From a bacterium (lineage in GTDB: Bacteria; Desulfobacterota; Binatia; UBA12015), in NCBI GenBank assembly GCA_030430245.1, contig JAUIFY010000001.1, forward strand, positions 12,878-76,877: a DNA stretch of 64,000 bases, given 5' to 3'. The notes under the pieces were generated by a model that did no database searches, was not told the origin of the DNA, and worked only from the letters and a program-made list of their open reading frames with translations. The position numbers were made by a program, and so were the translations under genes. Positions within the stretch are counted from its first letter, which is position 1. Every line of letters begins with the position of its first letter. This document shows, in pieces, positions 12,848 through 52,827 of the stretch.

Positions 12848-14473
12848 TCACTTGCAGAATCCACCGCCGAGAAACTCGTACGGCTGGCAGTCGTAGATCA
12901 GTCGTCCGGCTTCCCCGTGCATCCAATCCAGCGATCGGATCGCGTGGGGCGGCGGCATGCCGGGCGCGGGGGCGTCCTGCAGCAGGTCCAGAGGGATCGG
13001 GTAGGTGGCCCAGTCCTTCGGTGCACGCCAGCCGGGCGGTGGCACGAGCTGGTGGCGCGTTCCGGCGATCGGATGGATCTGGCGCCACTGGTGGATCGCC
13101 TTGGCCATCTCGGCCACGGTCTCGGGATGCTCCTGGGCCAGGTTGACGTACTCGTAGGGGTCCTCGGACGTGCGGAAGAGGTTGTTCGTGACCTGGACCG
13201 ACATGAGGCCCGTCCGTACCTGCTGAACGAGCTTCCACTCGTCGTTGAAGGCGGTGAGGTTGAAGTAGCCGCTGATCGGCGTCTCCGAAGCGAAGAACAG
13301 ATACTCTTCCCGCGGCACGTGCCGCTGCTCGCGGATCGCGTTCCAGAGGTTGCGGCCGTCGAGGTCGAAGTGGTTCCCGCGGGGGACGCCGGCGGCGGCG
13401 GTGAGTGTCGGGAACAGATCCATCGCCGACATGATGCTGTCGAAGCGTGTTCCCGGCTGGATCTCGGCAGGGTAGCGCAGGGCCGCCACGACGCGGATGC
13501 CTCCTTCGAACGTGTCGCCCTTGCCGCCGCGGAGCGGCACGTTGTCGGCACCGCCGGTCGCGTACGCGGCTCCGCCGTTGTCGCTGAACACGAGGACGAT
13601 CGTGTTCTCGGCGATGCCCTCGGCGTCGAGCGTGTCGAGAACGCGGCCGATCGCTCGATCCATCGCATCGACGACGGCGGCATACACGGGCCGGGCACTG
13701 GGCTGGAGCAGGAGGCGGCGCATCAAGCGTGACTGCTCGGTTTGCGGGCTCCTCGTGTCCTCGCGGTCGTCTTCCATGTCGGCGTACTTCGCGAGCAGAT
13801 CATCGGGCGCCTCGAGCGGCGTGTGCGGCGCGATGAACGGCATGTAGAGAAAGAAGGGGCGGCTCGCGTCGCGTGCCTTGATCCAGCGTTCCGCCTCGTC
13901 GGCGAGCACGAACGTCTCGTAGCCCTCTCCCTCGATCGACGTGCCGTTCGACTGGAAGTCGCGTCCGTTCTGTGCCGCGAAGGGGGGAAAGTAGCCGACC
14001 TCGGTGTGAAGATGGCCGTAGAAGTGGTCGAAGCCGCGCTCGTTGGGGTGGTAGGTTTGCTGTGCGTGTCCGAGATGCCACTTGCCGACCATCGCCGTCT
14101 GGTAGCCGGCGGCCTGGAAGCTCTGCGGCATGAAGTGCTCCGAGGGATGAACGCCGTTCGTCATCCACGGCATGATCACCCCGTACGCGACCCCGAGACG
14201 CATGGGGTCCCGACCGGTCATGAGAGCCGCCCGCGTCGGCGAGCAGATTGGAGTGCTGTAGAAGCGATGCAGCTCGACGCCTTCCGCGGCGATCCGGTCG
14301 ATCGCCGGCGTCTCGATCACTTCCTCGCCATGGAAGCCGACATCGGACCATCCGAGGTCGTCGGCCAGGAAGATCACGACGTTCGGTCGCGCGTCCGGCG
14401 CCGCCAGCGCGGTGGCCGGGCCGAGTGCGAGGAACGAGGCGAGGAGGGCGGTGCGCAGGAGCATGGGGAGCAC
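12848..14473 (-). CDS. Arylsulfatase (formylglycine-dependent sulfatase family), secreted
   Basis: Signal peptide MLPMLLRTALLASFLALGPATALA. Sulfatase signature CSPTRAALMTGR (C-x-P-x-R) and GKWHLG. Confidence 0.85.
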   Translation of the reverse strand: MLPMLLRTALLASFLALGPATALAAPDARPNVVIFLADDLGWSDVGFHGEEVIETPAIDRIAAEGVELHRFYSTPICSPTRAALMTGRDPMRLGVAYGVIMPWMTNGVHPSEHFMPQSFQAAGYQTAMVGKWHLGHAQQTYHPNERGFDHFYGHLHTEVGYFPPFAAQNGRDFQSNGTSIEGEGYETFVLADEAERWIKARDASRPFFLYMPFIAPHTPLEAPDDLLAKYADMEDDREDTRSPQTEQSRLMRRLLLQPSARPVYAAVVDAMDRAIGRVLDTLDAEGIAENTIVLVFSDNGGAAYATGGADNVPLRGGKGDTFEGGIRVVAALRYPAEIQPGTRFDSIMSAMDLFPTLTAAAGVPRGNHFDLDGRNLWNAIREQRHVPREEYLFFASETPISGYFNLTAFNDEWKLVQQVRTGLMSVQVTNNLFRTSEDPYEYVNLAQEHPETVAEMAKAIHQWRQIHPIAGTRHQLVPPPGWRAPKDWATYPIPLDLLQDAPAPGMPPPHAIRSLDWMHGEAGRLIYDCQPYEFLGGGFCK

Positions 14474-14625
14474 TTAGCGCGGTGGCGCGGGGCGGTCCAC
14501 GTCGCTTCGCCGGGACCGAGGCCCGCACCGATCTCGCGTCGACGGCCGAGGCGTGTGATTTCGCACGTCGCCGATTGATCGAACGACGGACTCCGTGCTG
14601 GAACGGATCGAATGGATGCGTACGA

Positions 14626-16005
14626 ATGAGCACGGAGGGTGGGGAGACCGGTCGCGAGATCGGGACCGTCGGTGCGACCGCGATCGTCGCCGGGGCGATG
14701 CTCGGCGTCGGCATCTTCCTGACGCCGCATCTGGTCGCGCAGAGCATCTCGTCGCCGGGGCTCTTCCTTCTACTCTGGGCTCTCGGGGGGGTGCTCGCGG
14801 TGGCCGGCGCCGTGACCTACGGCGAGCTCGGCGCGATGATGTCCGATGCGGGCGGCGACTACGTCTACCTCGGGCGCGCGTTCGGGCCGACGCTGGGCTT
14901 CGCCGCCGGTGTCGTGCTGTTCGTCGGCGTGTTCGGTGGTTCGATCGCGAGCATGTCGGCGGCGTTGAGCCAGTACCAGCTGAGCCTCCTCTTCGGACGG
15001 GTCGGGGTCGATCTGGCCGCCCCGTGGGTTCCTCTCGGCGGAGACGCGAGCCTCACGGGCGTCGAGATCGTCGCGATCGCTCTCGTCCTCGGGCTGACGA
15101 CGTTGAACGTACTGGGCGTGCGGTTGTCTGCGCACACACAGACGCTCCTCACCCTCGTGCCGGTCGTCGTGCTGTCCGGGTTCGCCGTGTTCGCGCTCCT
15201 CACCGCACCCCACGCGACCGCCGTGCCGCCCTCCGCTCCGTCCGGTGGGTCCGCGGCGATCGGAGAGGCGCTCCTGAACATCTACTTCGCGTACGCCGGC
15301 TGGAACGCGGTGGCGTACGTGGGGGGGGAGGTCGCGAATCCGGGGCGCACGATTCCCCGGGCGCTCCTTCTCGGTACGGGCCTCGTGACCGGCCTGTATC
15401 TCCTGTTGTGCGCTTCGTGGATCGCGGTGCTCGGCATGGGTGGCATCGCGCACGCCTTCGAGTCGGGGACCGCGGCGGCCCGCGCCCTGTTCGGACCGAA
15501 CGCCGAGTGGATGGTCGCCCTCATCATCGCGATCGCCCTCGTCGGTTCGGTGAACGCGACCGTCCTGGGCGGGGCGCGCATCGGGTACGCGATGGGAAGG
15601 GACGGCGCGCTGCCGGCGTCCCTCGGCGAGCTGTCTCCGGGTGCTCGGGTTCCCGCGCGGGCGCTCTGGGCGCAAGCGGCCTTGTCGATCGCGCTCGTGG
15701 TGACGGGAACGTTCGAGGAGCTCGTCCAGCTCACCAGCGTGGCGATGTTTCTCCTGGGGTCGCTCACCGTGCTCGCGCTGTTCACGCTCCGACGCCGCGA
15801 GCCGGACGTCGAGCGCCCCTACCGGGCGAGTCTCTACCCGGTTCTGCCGAGCCTCTACCTGCTGACCGCCGTCGCCGTCGTCGGGCTCGAGGTGCGGAAC
15901 TACGTGGCGGGGGACGCGGAATCGGGCCTGCCCCTCCTCGGCATCGGCGTGTTCGTGGGCGTCTGGTCCATACGCCGCGCCTTTCGCGGTCGGGGCGCGG
16001 CGTGA
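14626..16005 (+). CDS. APC-superfamily amino acid permease
   Basis: MSTEGGETGREIGTVGATAIVAGAMLGVGIFLTP... about 12 TM helices. The in-frame ATG inside track ORF 14248..16005 was chosen because upstream residues are Arg-rich junk. Confidence 0.8.
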   Translation: MSTEGGETGREIGTVGATAIVAGAMLGVGIFLTPHLVAQSISSPGLFLLLWALGGVLAVAGAVTYGELGAMMSDAGGDYVYLGRAFGPTLGFAAGVVLFVGVFGGSIASMSAALSQYQLSLLFGRVGVDLAAPWVPLGGDASLTGVEIVAIALVLGLTTLNVLGVRLSAHTQTLLTLVPVVVLSGFAVFALLTAPHATAVPPSAPSGGSAAIGEALLNIYFAYAGWNAVAYVGGEVANPGRTIPRALLLGTGLVTGLYLLLCASWIAVLGMGGIAHAFESGTAAARALFGPNAEWMVALIIAIALVGSVNATVLGGARIGYAMGRDGALPASLGELSPGARVPARALWAQAALSIALVVTGTFEELVQLTSVAMFLLGSLTVLALFTLRRREPDVERPYRASLYPVLPSLYLLTAVAVVGLEVRNYVAGDAESGLPLLGIGVFVGVWSIRRAFRGRGAA

Positions 16006-46932: not shown

Positions 46933-48462
46933 TCAGGGCACGCCGGCGACCGGCTGCATCTCGACGTCGCACACGCCCCCCACGGTCGCGCTCTCGACTC
47001 GAGGCGCGTCCCGACAGCTCTCGCCGCGCACCTGCATCCGGCAGGTGAGCTCGATCGGCTTTCCTGCGGAGAGCCAGCTCGGAACCTTTCGATGTCGGCC
47101 GATCGTGGCGAATCGACAGCCGGTCGGCGTTCCATAGGCGCGGCAGCCCGACGCTTGGCGAAGGGACACCTTGCGCGGGTCGAGGAGGAAGCCCGGGTAG
47201 TCGTCCCGAGCGGTGACGACGTCCCTTCGGGGAAGTGTCTCGATCGAGACCGACTCGAACTCGTAGCCGGCCGGCCGCTTCCGGCCGACCTCGACCCGCG
47301 TGTTCGCGATCAGGGCGAAATCCGAGCCCTTCCGCGCGACGGCGCCGGACATGTACTCGACGCGCTCGTGACCGGGAAAGCACTTCCCCATCGCCGGTGG
47401 GTGGTAGTAGTGGCGCAGTCGCTTGCTCTGCGCGGGAGGAGTGCCGACGAAGAGGGGCGCGAGCTTCGCGTCGTCCCCGAAGAGGATCGTCTCGACGTCC
47501 GCGCGGTTCTGCGCGTACATCGCCTGCAGCTGCGCGTAGCTCTCGTGTCCCGCCAGATCCGGACGTAGGAAGCACGACGTCAGTCCGGAGACCTGCGTCA
47601 GGTACTCGTCCCAGATGTTGTACTGCGAGACCTTCGACGCGACGCCTTCGAAGTCGCCCTCGAACCGGCAGCCCTGCCCGCGGGAGCACGCGTCGCGTGC
47701 GCGATTGCGGATCGAGAGCGCGATCACGTTCCTCTCGCACGCGCCGTACGCGCTGCAGCCGCGGTCGAGGTGTCCCTCGTAGATCGCCGTGCGCATTGCG
47801 TAGTCGAGGTGCCGGGCGCGGGCGAGGGCGTCCTTCGGCCAACGGCGCGCGCCCTCGCCCGCAAACGACGTCCATGCGTTCGCGAGCGCCCCGCGGCGGC
47901 CGACGAGCTGGGTCTGCGCCTGTCGGCACTGCGGCGAAGCGTGGAACGCGCGCACGATCGCGTCGAGCTCACTCGCGGGACGCACCGGCTCGGCCGCGCC
48001 CGACGGGGGAGGATCGAAGAACGGTGCCTTCGACATCTCGTACAGGTTTCGCACGCTCAAGACGTGGCGTACGGACGGGTCGCAGTGGTGGTTCTTCACC
48101 TGTCCGCGTTTTCTCTCCGCGAAGATGGAGCGGAACTTCGCGGTCGAGGCCGGGCTCGCGATGCGGGAGTCGACGACGATCTGGAAACCGACGTAGGGCG
48201 TGCCCCGGGGGTCGGTCAGCGGCTTCCCGCCGCGGAGGACGAGGCACGGGACGACGGAAGTCCCCTGGGTGAGCGTGCCTGCGGCGTTCGCCTGGGTGCC
48301 GCGACGCGCGAATGCTTCGATCTCCCAGAACGGCACGTCCAGCGGCCCGTTGAAGCGGTAGAGGGTCATGACCGGGGTCGCGGGGATGGCGCTCGCCGGA
48401 AGGGGGCCGGCGAGCGCCAGCAGCAGGACGACTCCGGCGAGGACGAAGCGCGCTCTCTCCAC
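46933..48462 (-). CDS. Secreted Cys-rich hypothetical protein (about 16 Cys)
   Basis: GTG start giving VERARFVLAGVVLLLALAGPLPASA as signal peptide. No recognisable domain. The upstream part of track ORF 46933..48696 is Arg-rich junk. Confidence 0.5.
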   Translation of the reverse strand: MERARFVLAGVVLLLALAGPLPASAIPATPVMTLYRFNGPLDVPFWEIEAFARRGTQANAAGTLTQGTSVVPCLVLRGGKPLTDPRGTPYVGFQIVVDSRIASPASTAKFRSIFAERKRGQVKNHHCDPSVRHVLSVRNLYEMSKAPFFDPPPSGAAEPVRPASELDAIVRAFHASPQCRQAQTQLVGRRGALANAWTSFAGEGARRWPKDALARARHLDYAMRTAIYEGHLDRGCSAYGACERNVIALSIRNRARDACSRGQGCRFEGDFEGVASKVSQYNIWDEYLTQVSGLTSCFLRPDLAGHESYAQLQAMYAQNRADVETILFGDDAKLAPLFVGTPPAQSKRLRHYYHPPAMGKCFPGHERVEYMSGAVARKGSDFALIANTRVEVGRKRPAGYEFESVSIETLPRRDVVTARDDYPGFLLDPRKVSLRQASGCRAYGTPTGCRFATIGRHRKVPSWLSAGKPIELTCRMQVRGESCRDAPRVESATVGGVCDVEMQPVAGVP

Positions 48463-48720
48463 TCTGAACCTCAGTCGAAGACGCTCCGCGCGACCGCTCC
48501 GTCGGTCCCGCGGAGGCCGCCGTGGCAGGTGCCGGCGGCGGAGGTAGGGACCTGCACGTCGGCCGGTGCCGCGGCGTCGAGCGGGACGTCGGCGCCCCGG
48601 AGGGGCACCTTCTTCTCGGACGGAGGGGCGGCGGCTCGCACTCCCGGATCTTCGCATGCGGGGTGGCCATTTCGCCACACGACCGATCGTGGGCACCGAG
48701 GTTCTCGACGGCTCGCGCCG

Positions 48721-50412
48721 ATGATAGAAACGAATTCGATGCGATGGTGGCAGCGGCTCCTGGGGCTTCTCGGGTTGGTGACGACGATCGTGGCGTTCCC
48801 GGCGGACGTGCAGGCGCTCGACGACGGATCACTCTCGTTCAAGGACGCCGAGGTGCGGCTGGGCGACCGACTGTTCTTCGAGACCCGGTTCTCGCAGTTC
48901 TACTTCGCGAACGCCGATGGCGACTCGAACGCGACCCTCCCGAAGGGCGATCCGCTCATGGAGAAGGTTCCGGTCGTCCTCGGCGAGGATCTCCCCGGGC
49001 CCTTCGCCGGTCAGGGAATCAACTGCCGTCAGTGCCACCTGGGGTCCGACTTCCTGCCCGAGCATCTCCGCGCCGGCCGAACCTACGGCGACTTCAGTCG
49101 GCGGAGCCCGGTCCCGAATCGCGACGACGGTCAGACCGTCGCGACCCGCAACTCGCCCATCATGATCGACATCGGGATGCCGCGCGAGGTTCCGATGCTG
49201 CTCCATCTCGACGGAGAGTTCGTCACGCACGAAGACCTGATCGTGGACACGATGACCGGCCGGAACTTCGGCTGGCTGCCGACGGAGGTCGAGACCGCGA
49301 AGAAGCACATCGCGAAGGTGGTGCGCGAGGACGAGGGGATGAACCCCCGACACATCCGCGATCCCGACGGGAACGGCATCCCCTACAAGACGGTGCTGAA
49401 GGGCGAGGACCCGCTGCTGCAGCACCAGCTCATCCCGGCCGAGTATCGCATCGACGTCGAGACCGCGTCGGACGACGAGATCCTGACGGCGGTCGCGAAG
49501 CTCATCCACGCGTACATGGACTCGCTGCGCTTCGGCACGAAGAACACGTTTCGCGAGTCTGGCTCTCCGTACGATCTCTTCCTCGAGAAGAACGCACTCC
49601 CGGCGAAGCCGGACCCGGGCGAGAAGGCGGCGGCCTACTCGAAGCGCCTCCTCGCCGAGATCGAGAAGCGGAACAGCTTCGACTTCGTGCGGCCGAGCGA
49701 CGACTATTTCCTTCTCCACCAGCAGCCGTATCAGTTCGGCCCGGAGGAGCTGCGCGGTCTGAAGATCTTCTTCTCGTCGGGAGCGCGGAAGAAGGCCGAC
49801 GCCGGGAACTGCATCGCGTGCCATCCGGCCCCGCGCTTCTCGGATTTCAGTCTCCACAACAACGGGGTGTCGCAGGTCGAGTACGACGCGATCTTCGGCG
49901 ACGGTGCGTTCGCGAAGCTCGAGATCCCGGACCTGAAGACGCGCAACGCGAATCACGACGAGTATCTCCCCGCCACGCCGGCGCATCCGACTGCGAAGGG
50001 GCGCTTTCGTCAGATCCCGGCAAAGAGCCGGCCCGGCGTGACCGATCTCGGCGTCTGGAGCATCTACGCGAACCCGGACTTTCCGAAGCCGCAGGTGGCC
50101 CTGAACCAGATCCTGTGCGGGGAGGGGGGGCCGGCAGAGGAGGGCTGCAGGCCGGAGGAGGTCCTTCCGCTCACCGTCGGGTACTTCAAGACTCCGGCGG
50201 TGCGGGACCTCGGCCAGTCCGAGCCCTACTTCCACACGGGAGAGATCGATACGATCGAGGAGGCGCTGCGCTTCTACGTGTCGGTCGCGGAGCTCGCGCG
50301 CGAGGGGAAGCTGCGCAACGCGTCTCCCGAGATGAAGGACATCCACATCGACGAGGAGGACGTGGCACCTCTCGCCGCGTTCCTCCGTTCGCTCAACGAG
50401 GATTATCATTGA
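48721..50412 (+). CDS. Di-heme cytochrome c peroxidase / MauG-family protein, secreted
   Basis: Signal peptide MIETNSMRWWQRLLGLLGLVTTIVAFPADVQA (alternative start 48739). Two CxxCH motifs: CRQCH and CIACH. 563 aa, long for the family. Confidence 0.8.
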   Translation: MIETNSMRWWQRLLGLLGLVTTIVAFPADVQALDDGSLSFKDAEVRLGDRLFFETRFSQFYFANADGDSNATLPKGDPLMEKVPVVLGEDLPGPFAGQGINCRQCHLGSDFLPEHLRAGRTYGDFSRRSPVPNRDDGQTVATRNSPIMIDIGMPREVPMLLHLDGEFVTHEDLIVDTMTGRNFGWLPTEVETAKKHIAKVVREDEGMNPRHIRDPDGNGIPYKTVLKGEDPLLQHQLIPAEYRIDVETASDDEILTAVAKLIHAYMDSLRFGTKNTFRESGSPYDLFLEKNALPAKPDPGEKAAAYSKRLLAEIEKRNSFDFVRPSDDYFLLHQQPYQFGPEELRGLKIFFSSGARKKADAGNCIACHPAPRFSDFSLHNNGVSQVEYDAIFGDGAFAKLEIPDLKTRNANHDEYLPATPAHPTAKGRFRQIPAKSRPGVTDLGVWSIYANPDFPKPQVALNQILCGEGGPAEEGCRPEEVLPLTVGYFKTPAVRDLGQSEPYFHTGEIDTIEEALRFYVSVAELAREGKLRNASPEMKDIHIDEEDVAPLAAFLRSLNEDYH

Positions 50413-52079
50413 TGACGAAGTCGCTCTCGACGTTGGTCGGCCTGGCCGTGCTCGTCGCCGCTGTCGCGCCCGACGAAGCGGCGGCTCTGAGCCGCGAGCG
50501 CTGGACGAACCCGGAGCCCTATGGGGTCTTCTTCAACAACTACGATCCGAACTTCTACACCGGGTTCGTGCCGCGCGTGCAGGACGCGGATCGCATCAAG
50601 ATCCACCTCGGTCGGGGAAACCAGCTGCGCGTTCGGATGATCCTGCCCGACGAGGCGATCGACAACTTCGTCGTCGATCAGGTCAAGAAGCACGACCTCT
50701 ATCAGGAGGTGATCGATGCCGGCGTCATCGAGCTCACCGCGAACACCGCCTGGGAGGACTACGACGCGAAGTTCGAGCAAGCGGGGCTTCGTGAGATCGC
50801 GGCGAAGAAGGGAACCGTCTCGCCCGAGGAGTGGCGGGAGCTCAACGTCGAGGCTTTGCAGAAGCTCCAGCCCGAGCGCGTCTACCACATCCAGAAGGAC
50901 TTCGAGCAGATGACCAAGGCCTTCTACGACTCGCTCGCCGCTGCGCCCGAGCCGAAGAATCTGAGCCAGAAGCTCGATCTCGTGAACGGGTACTTCGAGA
51001 ATCGCATCTTCGCCTACGAGCTCACGAAGGAGCAGGAGGCCGAGCTCTCCGCGCTGCAGGCCCTGGCCAAGGCGGGGAACGAGGCGGACTTCGGGCCGAA
51101 GGCCGCGGCGTTCTTCCAGGACGTCACCGGTGGGCTCTATCCCGTCGAAGACGGAAAGATCGACTACTACGAGTACACGGCGGTCTGGGCCGCCGGCACG
51201 TACGACAAGATGACGAAGGTGAATGGCGAGGAGATGCCGTGGATCACGACTCCGGGCGTCTGGACCTTCATCCCGCGCATGCACGGCAAGGGCATCACGG
51301 GGATGGTCGATTACATCTCGTCGGCCGGATACTACGGCCTGATTCCCATGTTTCCGTACGAGTACGGTGGGGGCATCGCCTACAACGCGATTCACAACAC
51401 CGGCATCAGCAACTGGATCCAGGGCCACCCCCTGCTGCCGAAGGAGTGGAAGACCTACACGGAGGGAAGCCGCAACGGAAAGCCCTACAATCGCGTCGCG
51501 GTGACGAGTCGGGGCCCGGTCTCGCACGGCTGCACGCGACTCGGCTCGGGGCACCTCGCCGAGCTGCGCGAGATGCTTCCTTCGACTTCGGACGACATGA
51601 AGGGCATCGTCAACTATCGGAACGTCTCGCAGTGCTACGACGTCTTCGATCGCAAGGGTGACGGCGAGGAAGAGGTGATGGGCGTTCAGTACTACATCGC
51701 CTTCCGTCACACGAACGAGCGAGTCGCCAAGCACATCTGGGCGCAGAACAATCGCCAGGACTTCTACGAGTGGTTGTACGGCGACGACATGAACTACGGC
51801 CCGATCGGCGAGGTCACGTTCGACGAGGTCTGCACCGGCAAGTTCGTCGGCAAGAAGGCCGTCGAGGGCGCGACGTACCAGAACGTCAAGCTCTACGAGG
51901 CGCCGTACGAACCGGAGACGATCCAGTTCTACAAGATCAAGGGCGTCAGCCAGCTCTCGCGTGAGGGCATGGATTTCAACCGGGAGCTGCGTCGCGTGGG
52001 CTACGGATACGACATCGATCGAAAGAAGCTGCGCCTTCCGCCGACGAAGACGGCTTCGGCGGAGGCCGCGGAGGGGTAA
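50412..52079 (+). CDS. Secreted 555-aa protein with C-terminal L,D-transpeptidase-like (YkuD) catalytic motif
   Basis: Signal peptide MTKSLSTLVGLAVLVAAVAPDEAAA. SRGPVSHGCTRLGSGHLAELREML resembles the YkuD SHGC(I/T)R active site. The N-terminal 430 aa has no recognisable domain. The start overlaps the upstream stop (TGATG). Confidence 0.6.
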   Translation: MTKSLSTLVGLAVLVAAVAPDEAAALSRERWTNPEPYGVFFNNYDPNFYTGFVPRVQDADRIKIHLGRGNQLRVRMILPDEAIDNFVVDQVKKHDLYQEVIDAGVIELTANTAWEDYDAKFEQAGLREIAAKKGTVSPEEWRELNVEALQKLQPERVYHIQKDFEQMTKAFYDSLAAAPEPKNLSQKLDLVNGYFENRIFAYELTKEQEAELSALQALAKAGNEADFGPKAAAFFQDVTGGLYPVEDGKIDYYEYTAVWAAGTYDKMTKVNGEEMPWITTPGVWTFIPRMHGKGITGMVDYISSAGYYGLIPMFPYEYGGGIAYNAIHNTGISNWIQGHPLLPKEWKTYTEGSRNGKPYNRVAVTSRGPVSHGCTRLGSGHLAELREMLPSTSDDMKGIVNYRNVSQCYDVFDRKGDGEEEVMGVQYYIAFRHTNERVAKHIWAQNNRQDFYEWLYGDDMNYGPIGEVTFDEVCTGKFVGKKAVEGATYQNVKLYEAPYEPETIQFYKIKGVSQLSREGMDFNRELRRVGYGYDIDRKKLRLPPTKTASAEAAEG

Positions 52080-52113
52080 GTCCGCCCCATTTTGCGAGGA
52101 GATGAGGAAGACA

Positions 52114-52827
52114 ATGACGAAGATCGTTTCGAGGTTGGCGGCGCTGGCAACGTGTCTGGCGGTGGCGGGATGGACCGCGGCGCCGGTTGCGTGGGCCGAA
52201 GATGAGAAGCTCGAGCTCCAGACCGAGGTCGACCAGGCGCGGACCATCCTGAACCAGTTCCAGAAGATCCCGGAGAAGGGCATTCCCGACGCGGTGCTTC
52301 GCAACGCGAAGGGACTCGCGTTCCTCACCGTGCTCCGCGCCGGCTTCATCATCAGCGGTTCCGGTGGCAAGGGCGTCGTCGTCGCGAAGAACGACGATGG
52401 CACCTGGACCGGGCCTTCGTTCATCGGGACGGGCGGCGCCGGATTCGGCTTTCAGATCGGCGCCCAGGTGAGCGAGTTCGTCATGGTGTTGAATACGCCG
52501 GAGGCGGTGAACGCCTTCGCGAAGGGGGGCAACGTCTCGATCGGCGCGCAGGTGAGCGCGGCGGCGGGGCCGGTCGGCCGAAGCCTGGGCGCCGACGTCA
52601 TGCCGCAGGCGGCGATCTACACGTACAGCCGCGCGCAGGGTCTCTTCGGCGGCGTCTCCCTCGACGGGACGGTCGTCGCCACGCGCAAGGAGGCGAACAC
52701 GGAGTACTACGGCGAGGCGGTCTCCTCGCTGGCGATCCTCTCGGGCAAGGTCGAGGCTCCGGCCGGCGCCGAGAAGCTCCGCGCCGATCTCGCCAAGCTC
52801 ACGGCCGAGGCCAACGCCGACGAGTAG
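52114..52827 (+). CDS. SYLF (Ysc84/DUF500) lipid-binding domain protein, secreted
   Basis: Signal peptide MTKIVSRLAALATCLAVAGWTAAPVAWA. YTYSRAQGLFGGVSLDG and GFQIGAQVSEFVMVLNT are SYLF repeats. Alternative start 52102. Confidence 0.7.
   Translation: MTKIVSRLAALATCLAVAGWTAAPVAWAEDEKLELQTEVDQARTILNQFQKIPEKGIPDAVLRNAKGLAFLTVLRAGFIISGSGGKGVVVAKNDDGTWTGPSFIGTGGAGFGFQIGAQVSEFVMVLNTPEAVNAFAKGGNVSIGAQVSAAAGPVGRSLGADVMPQAAIYTYSRAQGLFGGVSLDGTVVATRKEANTEYYGEAVSSLAILSGKVEAPAGAEKLRADLAKLTAEANADE

Follow-up and report, generated by a model that had tools for sequence, protein, structure and literature searches.

MauG from Paracoccus denitrificans (a 373-residue chain), MbnH of the methanobactin operon, BthA from Burkholderia thailandensis (PDB 6nx0, 477 aa) and the bacterial di-heme cytochrome c peroxidases (bCCPs; e.g., PDB 1iqc, 3hq6 and 3o5c) are among the described systems closest to a 563-aa di-heme enzyme encoded in the DNA analysed here, a 64,000-nt stretch from a Binatia bacterium (assembly GCA_030430245.1, contig JAUIFY010000001.1; the whole stretch is hereafter called the window). 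The gene of this enzyme overlaps that of a 555-aa secreted protein, here termed the partner, for which the nearest described enzymes are those of the YkuD type, namely the L,D-transpeptidases and the DpaA/LdtF amidase (PF03734). A gene for a secreted Cys-rich protein is found on the opposite strand. A first-pass annotation of this DNA had proposed that the partner may be a substrate of the di-heme enzyme, with the Cys-rich protein as a possible further member of the module. When the three families were followed in other genomes, they were found to occur independently of each other, and the reading we lean towards is that of three autonomous secreted families, two of which are joined in a clade-specific operon, with no dedicated maturase-substrate module.

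With MauG and MbnH the window enzyme shares two c-type heme motifs, a Tyr at the position of MauG Tyr294, an N-terminal LGxxLFF(D/E)xR(L/F)(S/A) segment and a C-terminal FKTPxxR(D/N)..PY(F/M)HxG segment. On the contrary, it is ~190 residues longer than MauG, its heme domains are separated by a long insertion, and its family has no conserved adjoining mauA/mauB or mbnP-like substrate gene. BthA, which came out as the top or second match among PDB sequences, is also extended and of the MauG type, but only ~40–75 of its residues align with the window enzyme, and between the additional domains there is no sequence relationship. The bCCPs have the superfamily motifs in common with it, whereas the position of their Met ligand, just past the aligned block, is occupied by an invariant Tyr in the window family, and no electron-donor gene is found near the window di-heme gene. 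As for the partner, it shares with YkuD-type enzymes secretion, an invariant Cys and an (S/T)xGC(V/I/T)R(L/M) motif, after which come a helix and a Pro, and its family shows weak colinear matches with them over up to 87–136 columns; it differs from them in its 555-aa single architecture, in which ~430 residues are without known relative.

Distribution of the di-heme enzyme and its partner

The three genes named in the first-pass annotation are present in the window, arranged as follows:

46933–48462, minus strand: Cys-rich secreted protein gene (GTG start, 509 aa; open reading frame (ORF) and translation)
48721–50412, plus strand: gene of the bCCP/MauG-superfamily di-heme enzyme (563 aa, or 557 aa if started at ATG 48739)
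50408–50414, plus strand: stop/start overlap TGATG between the di-heme enzyme gene and the partner gene (sequence)
50412–52079, plus strand: partner gene (secreted, unannotated family; 555 aa; ORF and translation)

The overlap between the stop of the di-heme gene and the start of the partner gene, noticed already at the first reading, is confirmed, the first base of the partner ATG being the last base of the di-heme stop codon. The 509-aa Cys-rich product matches a protein called by NCBI (P0391) at 100% identity, and an exact copy of the 555-aa partner is present in the protein collection. The source's own call of the di-heme gene starts at 48739, giving a 557-aa protein (P0121, 100% identity). 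All three products have signal-peptide-like N-termini, as read by eye from the sequence.

To follow the pair outside the window, the partner family was scanned with one genome per species (52 loci) and the di-heme family was sampled at 84 loci. At the partner-family loci, tblastn found the di-heme, Cys-rich, Ysc84 and DUF922 genes only in close relatives, with a partner at least 83% identical to that of the window, where the entire neighbourhood is syntenic with the window. The di-heme and partner genes are indeed adjacent only in this close clade (L003–L005, L008, L049, L071 and the window), and the TGATG junction, seen in six loci (L003/L004, L005, L008, L049 and L071), is conserved only inside it. 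At every locus outside the clade the partner family occurs without the di-heme gene; this is the case in 31 species-level genomes for which at least 3 kb of upstream DNA is available, including strictly anaerobic Desulfobacterota (delta proteobacterium NaphS2 and Desulfopila sp. IMCC35008). From the other side, 83 of the 84 di-heme loci are without the partner, the exception (L071) being a clade member, and no universal neighbour of the di-heme gene was found in the 84 loci. The proposal that the partner is the substrate of the di-heme enzyme thus fails on co-conservation outside a single clade.

Further evidence comes from a related lineage of metagenome-assembled genomes (MAGs), represented by two assemblies (L060 and L061), whose di-heme enzyme is 67% identical to that of the window. 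Synteny with the window is retained there, in the order Cys-rich protein, alcohol dehydrogenase, di-heme enzyme, DUF922, SDR and ACAD, with neither the partner nor the Ysc84 gene. The Ysc84 gene, which is syntenic in L003–L005, L008 and L049, is missing along with the partner in L060 and L061, and in this clade it is found only where the partner occurs. Since the DUF922 gene directly follows the di-heme gene in these two assemblies (L060:5619–8201 and L061:4961–7543), the partner gene and that of Ysc84 look like a unit of two genes inserted or deleted as a whole. Nothing on a pairing of the di-heme enzyme with the partner was found in the literature searched.

The di-heme enzyme

The residues on which the assignment of the 563-aa protein rests are given below; A4 is an alignment of 20 homologs of the di-heme enzyme.

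49024–49038, plus strand: first heme-binding motif CRQCH, residues 102–106 (C102, C105 and H106 invariant in A4)
49810–49824, plus strand: second heme-binding motif CIACH, residues 364–368 (C364, C367 and H368 invariant in A4)
50275–50277, plus strand: Tyr519, candidate axial ligand of the six-coordinate heme (invariant in A4)

The Pfam CCP_MauG model (PF03150), with which the family assignment was to be checked, did match the enzyme, but at 18.4 bits it remained below the curated threshold of 25.6. NCBIfam gave partial matches to MbnH (6.8e-13) and MauG (5.3e-10), again under the cut-offs (48 vs 363 and 39 vs 444, respectively). A PDB search with the 20-homolog profile returned MbnH (6e1c) as the best match (1.6e-6), followed by BthA, several bCCPs and MauG, with three colinear aligned segments, i.e., the N-terminus, the second heme motif and the C-terminal FKTPxxRD..PYFHxG; the region of the second heme motif is aligned to its counterpart in BthA. 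With both CxxCH motifs invariant and these colinear matches, the earlier description of a di-heme MauG/CCP-family enzyme is sustained, and by its sequence the protein is best classified as a divergent member of the bCCP/MauG superfamily, of the MauG/MbnH type.

In an ungapped HMMER alignment Tyr519 is paired with residue 294 of MauG (..ailfYnky..), the axial ligand of the six-coordinate heme in that enzyme; at the matching position, true bacterial cytochrome c peroxidases carry a Met ligand. The window enzyme is thus probably His/Tyr-ligated. Its family is large, with >1850 matches of ~560 aa, and JGI has given many of these the label cytochrome c peroxidase.

In a subclade of the di-heme family (44–51% identical to the window protein; L109, L117, L124, L127, L137, L138, L140, L142, L145 and L148) an upstream 461-aa gene is kept, e.g., at L138:1465–2850 on the plus strand. 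Its product shows a weak match to the beta-barrel of TonB-dependent receptors and might be an outer-membrane partner.

The partner family

More than 500 homologs of the partner, all labelled hypothetical, were retrieved from Binatia, Myxococcota, Desulfobacterota and Gammaproteobacteria, with identities to the window protein of 62–95%. No match to the partner was obtained in Pfam, NCBIfam or PDB sequence searches. An exhaustive search of 1.8 billion cluster representatives with the partner profile gave 253 matches, including distant full-length members of ~600 aa. Alignment A2 comprises partner-family sequences 24–83% identical to the window protein, and the residues invariant in it include N325, H328, R367, S371, G373, C374, R386, P390, D410, D413 and G418. 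The segments of interest are:

51393–51395, plus strand: His328 in a conserved N-x-x-H-N segment, candidate catalytic base (invariant in A2)
51504–51542, plus strand: TSRGPVSHGCTRL, YkuD-like active-site motif, residues 365–377, with Cys374 (invariant in alignment A1)
51639–51665, plus strand: DVFDRKGDG loop, residues 410–418, near the motif (D410, D413 and G418 invariant in A2)

His328 is the only His invariant throughout the family. In a few A2 members H372, the His of SHGC, is replaced by Ser or Arg. Weak Pfam EF-hand matches were obtained on the equivalent loop of two family members (P0246 and P0270), and the DVFDRKGDG loop is possibly a Ca2+-binding site.

A first AlphaFold run on the partner used 30 close homologs and gave a poor model of residues 260–450, where the motif is located. 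An AlphaFold2 model with 78 sequences, including distant members, reached a pLDDT of 94.1 and a pTM of 0.91. Foldseek searches with this model returned nothing significant from PDB (best E 0.15) or BFVD.

When partners linked to a di-heme gene were compared with 25 unlinked ones, only N183, Y194 and W277 were found in all of the former and in none of the latter; of these, Y194 and W277 are aromatic gains. Partner-family genes were also seen on two contigs (L046 and L055) of the MAG JAIVTC01, which bears the label Candidatus Bathyarchaeota. As every other host of the family is a Gram-negative bacterium, faulty binning is the probable cause.

Resemblance of the partner to YkuD-type enzymes

The first-pass annotation had compared the HGC motif of the partner with the YkuD catalytic site. 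The Pfam YkuD model (PF03734) gave no match to the window partner at E up to 1. On distant members of the partner family it matched 6 of 30 at 12–16 bits, under the cut-off of 23.4, and these six matches line up in register with its catalytic end. The PDB profile search with the partner picked Bacillus subtilis YkuD at the motif, with an E of 2.6. YkuD genes were sought in the collected loci and none was found; therefore, a profile of 12 sequences was built from E. coli LdtB, LdtC, LdtD and DpaA and eight plasmid genes. HHalign comparison of the partner family with the four E. coli proteins gave P values from 1.4e-3 to 1.9e-4, and with the whole YkuD profile a score of 34.5 (P 1.1e-4, HHalign probability 33–57%), while none of 120 column-shuffled control profiles went above 19.1.

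The similarity is local (~25–87 columns) and rests on 25 columns, covering VSHGCxRL, the next helix and a Pro. HHalign did not align the YkuD catalytic His with the invariant His328, and there is no His at all 14–20 residues before Cys374, where YkuD enzymes have theirs in an (I/L)HG(T/S) strand. His328, in the sequence AIHNT, is instead 46 residues upstream of Cys374; a long loop insertion could reconcile it with the position of the YkuD His. Foldseek did not match the partner model to any YkuD structure in PDB. What stands of the original comparison is the motif, with its 0/120 shuffles: as judged from the alignments, the putative active-site motif of the partner is YkuD-like above chance, at the level of the motif only.

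One further YkuD candidate, a stop-to-stop ORF of the window (14224–16002, plus strand) with the sequence SNGCVRM, was dropped as spurious because the motif precedes the likely start codon (ATG at 14626) of an amino-acid permease gene.

Neighbours of the partner family in other phyla

In 19 distinct loci of three phyla (Myxococcota, Gammaproteobacteria and Desulfobacterota) a gene for a secreted dikinase-like protein of ~1010–1200 aa adjoins the partner-family gene (L001/L002/L048, L009, L011–L016, L018, L023, L027, L029, L030, L034, L042, L051, L054, L057 and L059). This protein has a signal-peptide-like N-terminus, a swivel-His motif (GNVVSHVQLLAR, GN(V/A/M)VSH(V/M/I)QLLAR) and, at the C-terminus, an ATP-grasp domain matched by Pfam PPDK_N at 7e-26. 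The NCBIfam models of PEP synthase, water dikinase and rifampin phosphotransferase match the protein in part. Since it carries a signal peptide, use of ATP outside the cytoplasm is implied. No description of a secreted dikinase was found in the literature searched.

A paralog of the partner, of ~560 aa and 36–46% identical to it, is found in 14 loci, a few kb from the main copy (L009, L011, L015, L016, L018, L027, L029, L030, L034, L040, L051, L054, L055 and L057), and in it S(H/S)GCTH(V/L/I) replaces SHGCTRL. The order main copy, dikinase, paralog is frequent. A subset of Desulfobacterota loci (L018, also L027, L051, the truncated L021, L025 and L058) adds a membrane protein similar to TLC-type NTP/NDP exchangers and a UshA-like 5'-nucleotidase, which fits a model where ATP would be supplied to the periplasm and AMP removed. 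Examples of these genes are:

L018:3060–6110, minus strand: dikinase-like gene, next to the partner-family gene
L034:9653–12703, plus strand: dikinase-like gene, next to the partner-family gene
L018:73–1758, minus strand: partner paralog gene
L040:2357–4024, plus strand: partner paralog gene
L018:1742–3034, minus strand: transporter-like gene
L018:6206–7978, plus strand: nucleotidase-like gene

The recurrence of dikinase and paralog as neighbours suggests a periplasmic ATP-dependent module. About 30 partner-family loci are without a dikinase within the available flanks, and the 64 kb of the window contain no dikinase-like, paralog, TLC-like or UshA-like gene.

Interpretation of the locus

It is solely in one Binatia-like lineage that the three families would be neighbours. 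The di-heme enzyme would act on a substrate that is not encoded by a conserved neighbour, and the partner would most likely be a periplasmic cysteine-dependent enzyme, with Cys374 as nucleophile, His328 as probable base and the DxxDxxGDG loop nearby. Its chemistry may proceed through a thioester acyl-enzyme, as in L,D-transpeptidases and related amidases, possibly on a cell-envelope peptide. In the clade, where the partner and Ysc84 genes are directly downstream of the di-heme gene, the TGATG junction would couple translation, so that the di-heme enzyme and the partner would be co-expressed. A functional link between the two, if any, would be clade-specific and dispensable for either family: each is nearly always found without the other, and a dedicated enzyme-substrate pair is therefore unlikely. 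On this evidence we consider the reading of three autonomous families, two of them joined in one clade, to be somewhat better than evenly supported.

Some observations pull in the other direction. The 1-nt overlap has been kept across six clade members whose di-heme enzymes are 75–94% identical, and this suggests selection for co-expression. A Tyr-ligated heme of the MauG type is typical of enzymes oxidising protein partners, not of simple peroxide scavengers, and the clade-specific aromatic residues W277 and Y194 of the partner could be modification sites. These points also feed a narrower form of the original proposal, a clade-specific, MauG-like maturation in which the di-heme enzyme, by means of H2O2 or O2, would oxidise or cross-link the co-translated partner, generating a protein-derived cofactor or cross-link absent from the members of other phyla. 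Besides the conserved TGATG coupling and the two aromatic residues, it can call on the alignment of Tyr519 with the MauG ligand Tyr294 and on MbnH and MauG, the closest solved relatives by sequence, which act on partner proteins. It has to face a partner family that is 62–70% identical across the sampled phyla, with the same invariant core and no di-heme enzyme, anaerobes included, a di-heme family that almost always lacks the partner, a syntenic relative without the partner, and clade-specific positions amounting to just 3 of 555, so that we judge it decidedly improbable. The alternative offered in the first-pass annotation, here framed as a co-regulated envelope-stress pair, is hardly better placed and seems to us quite unlikely. 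According to it the di-heme enzyme would clear periplasmic peroxide and so shield the catalytic thiol of a wall-remodelling partner, the coupling being useful in aerobes and unneeded in anaerobes; the co-transcribed, coupled gene arrangement, a secreted partner whose free Cys374 looks essential and the Desulfobacterota loci without a di-heme gene beside the partner all agree with this. A Tyr in place of the Met ligand, however, argues against efficient peroxide turnover, as is known from MauG and BthA; the partner is present without the di-heme enzyme in Myxococcota and Gammaproteobacteria that are probably aerobic; and no regulator or stress-response signal was found.

The neighbours seen in other phyla allow for a different function of the partner, which would not be a peptidoglycan enzyme but part of a periplasmic ATP-dependent dikinase system, its YkuD-like motif being convergent or re-purposed and the other components in the window organism being elsewhere or replaced. 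The pairing of a partner-family gene with a secreted dikinase carrying GNVVSHVQLLAR and PPDK_N in 19 loci of three phyla, the frequent presence of the paralog, the TLC-like transporter and UshA-like nucleotidase of one subset and the Foldseek result without a YkuD match speak for it. The lack of a dikinase-like gene or paralog in the window's 64 kb, the ~30 loci without a dikinase in their flanks and the statistically real similarity to the YkuD active site speak against it; moreover, a dikinase link and peptidoglycan chemistry are not mutually exclusive. We regard this explanation as possible, although on balance doubtful. A combination of these elements, in which the partner family would consist of undescribed periplasmic Cys enzymes, found elsewhere with a dikinase and a paralog, and sometimes with an NTP/NDP exchanger and a UshA-like nucleotidase, that spend periplasmic ATP on an envelope component and are wired here to a MauG-like oxidase, appears unlikely to us.

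Returning to the three autonomous families, adjacency, even with a start/stop overlap, was insufficient here to infer an enzyme-substrate pair, and the sampling of other genomes reversed that inference. The value of the result would then come from three unannotated families and a secreted-dikinase lead, not from the proposed MauG-substrate pair. The locus unites three large and strongly conserved secreted families without annotation, one of which, that of the di-heme enzyme, is MauG-like and exceeds 1850 members. If the partner family is a cell-wall enzyme, it would be an unrecognised branch of carbapenem-target-like enzymes, and a link with the dikinase, if functional, would be a sign of ATP-dependent periplasmic chemistry.

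The Cys-rich protein

The Cys-rich protein (509 aa) has 14 Cys, not 16 as first counted, and all 14 are invariant in 20 homologs. No Pfam or NCBIfam match was obtained and the PDB sequence search gave nothing usable. The family counts >800 unannotated homologs of ~500 aa, with ~60% identity across phyla; it is present in purple sulfur bacteria, and cultured organisms having it include Methylococcus capsulatus, Thiocystis and Imhoffiella. Further conserved segments of the family are NHHC and HYYHPPAMGKC.

With regard to a common module with the other two genes, as suggested at the first reading, three loci of the family elsewhere (L064–L066) have neither the di-heme nor the partner gene, and the Cys-rich gene is absent from 81 of the 84 di-heme loci, being present in three. 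In some relatives an alcohol dehydrogenase gene is found between the Cys-rich and the di-heme genes. The Cys-rich protein is thus a separate widespread family, unlinked elsewhere, and is not in a conserved module with the di-heme enzyme and the partner.

Composition and flanking genes

The window has a GC content of ~68%, which falls locally to 0.63–0.65 over the di-heme and partner genes. The unusual composition of the two proteins, earlier described as rich in Lys, Asp and Tyr and unlike their Ala/Arg-rich neighbours, was borne out by the counts: Ala+Arg is 14–15% in the di-heme enzyme and the partner vs 17–28% in the products of the neighbouring genes, Lys and Tyr reach 6.1% and 6.3% in the partner and Asp 7.8% in the di-heme enzyme, and Lys, Tyr, Asn and Phe are enriched in both with respect to the neighbours. 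Recent horizontal transfer was considered as a cause of the GC dip and was ruled out: third-position GC of the two plus-strand genes (0.888 and 0.894) is native, being 0.86–0.92 in the neighbours, and the dip thus reflects the amino-acid content. The scan for promoters and terminators gave results at chance level.

Downstream of the partner gene the following feature was placed, its start being set by reading the sequence:

52102–52827, plus strand: Ysc84/SYLF-domain lipoprotein gene

Its product matches Pfam Ysc84 at 7.2e-42 and, weakly, the NCBIfam model of BPSL1445 family lipoproteins.

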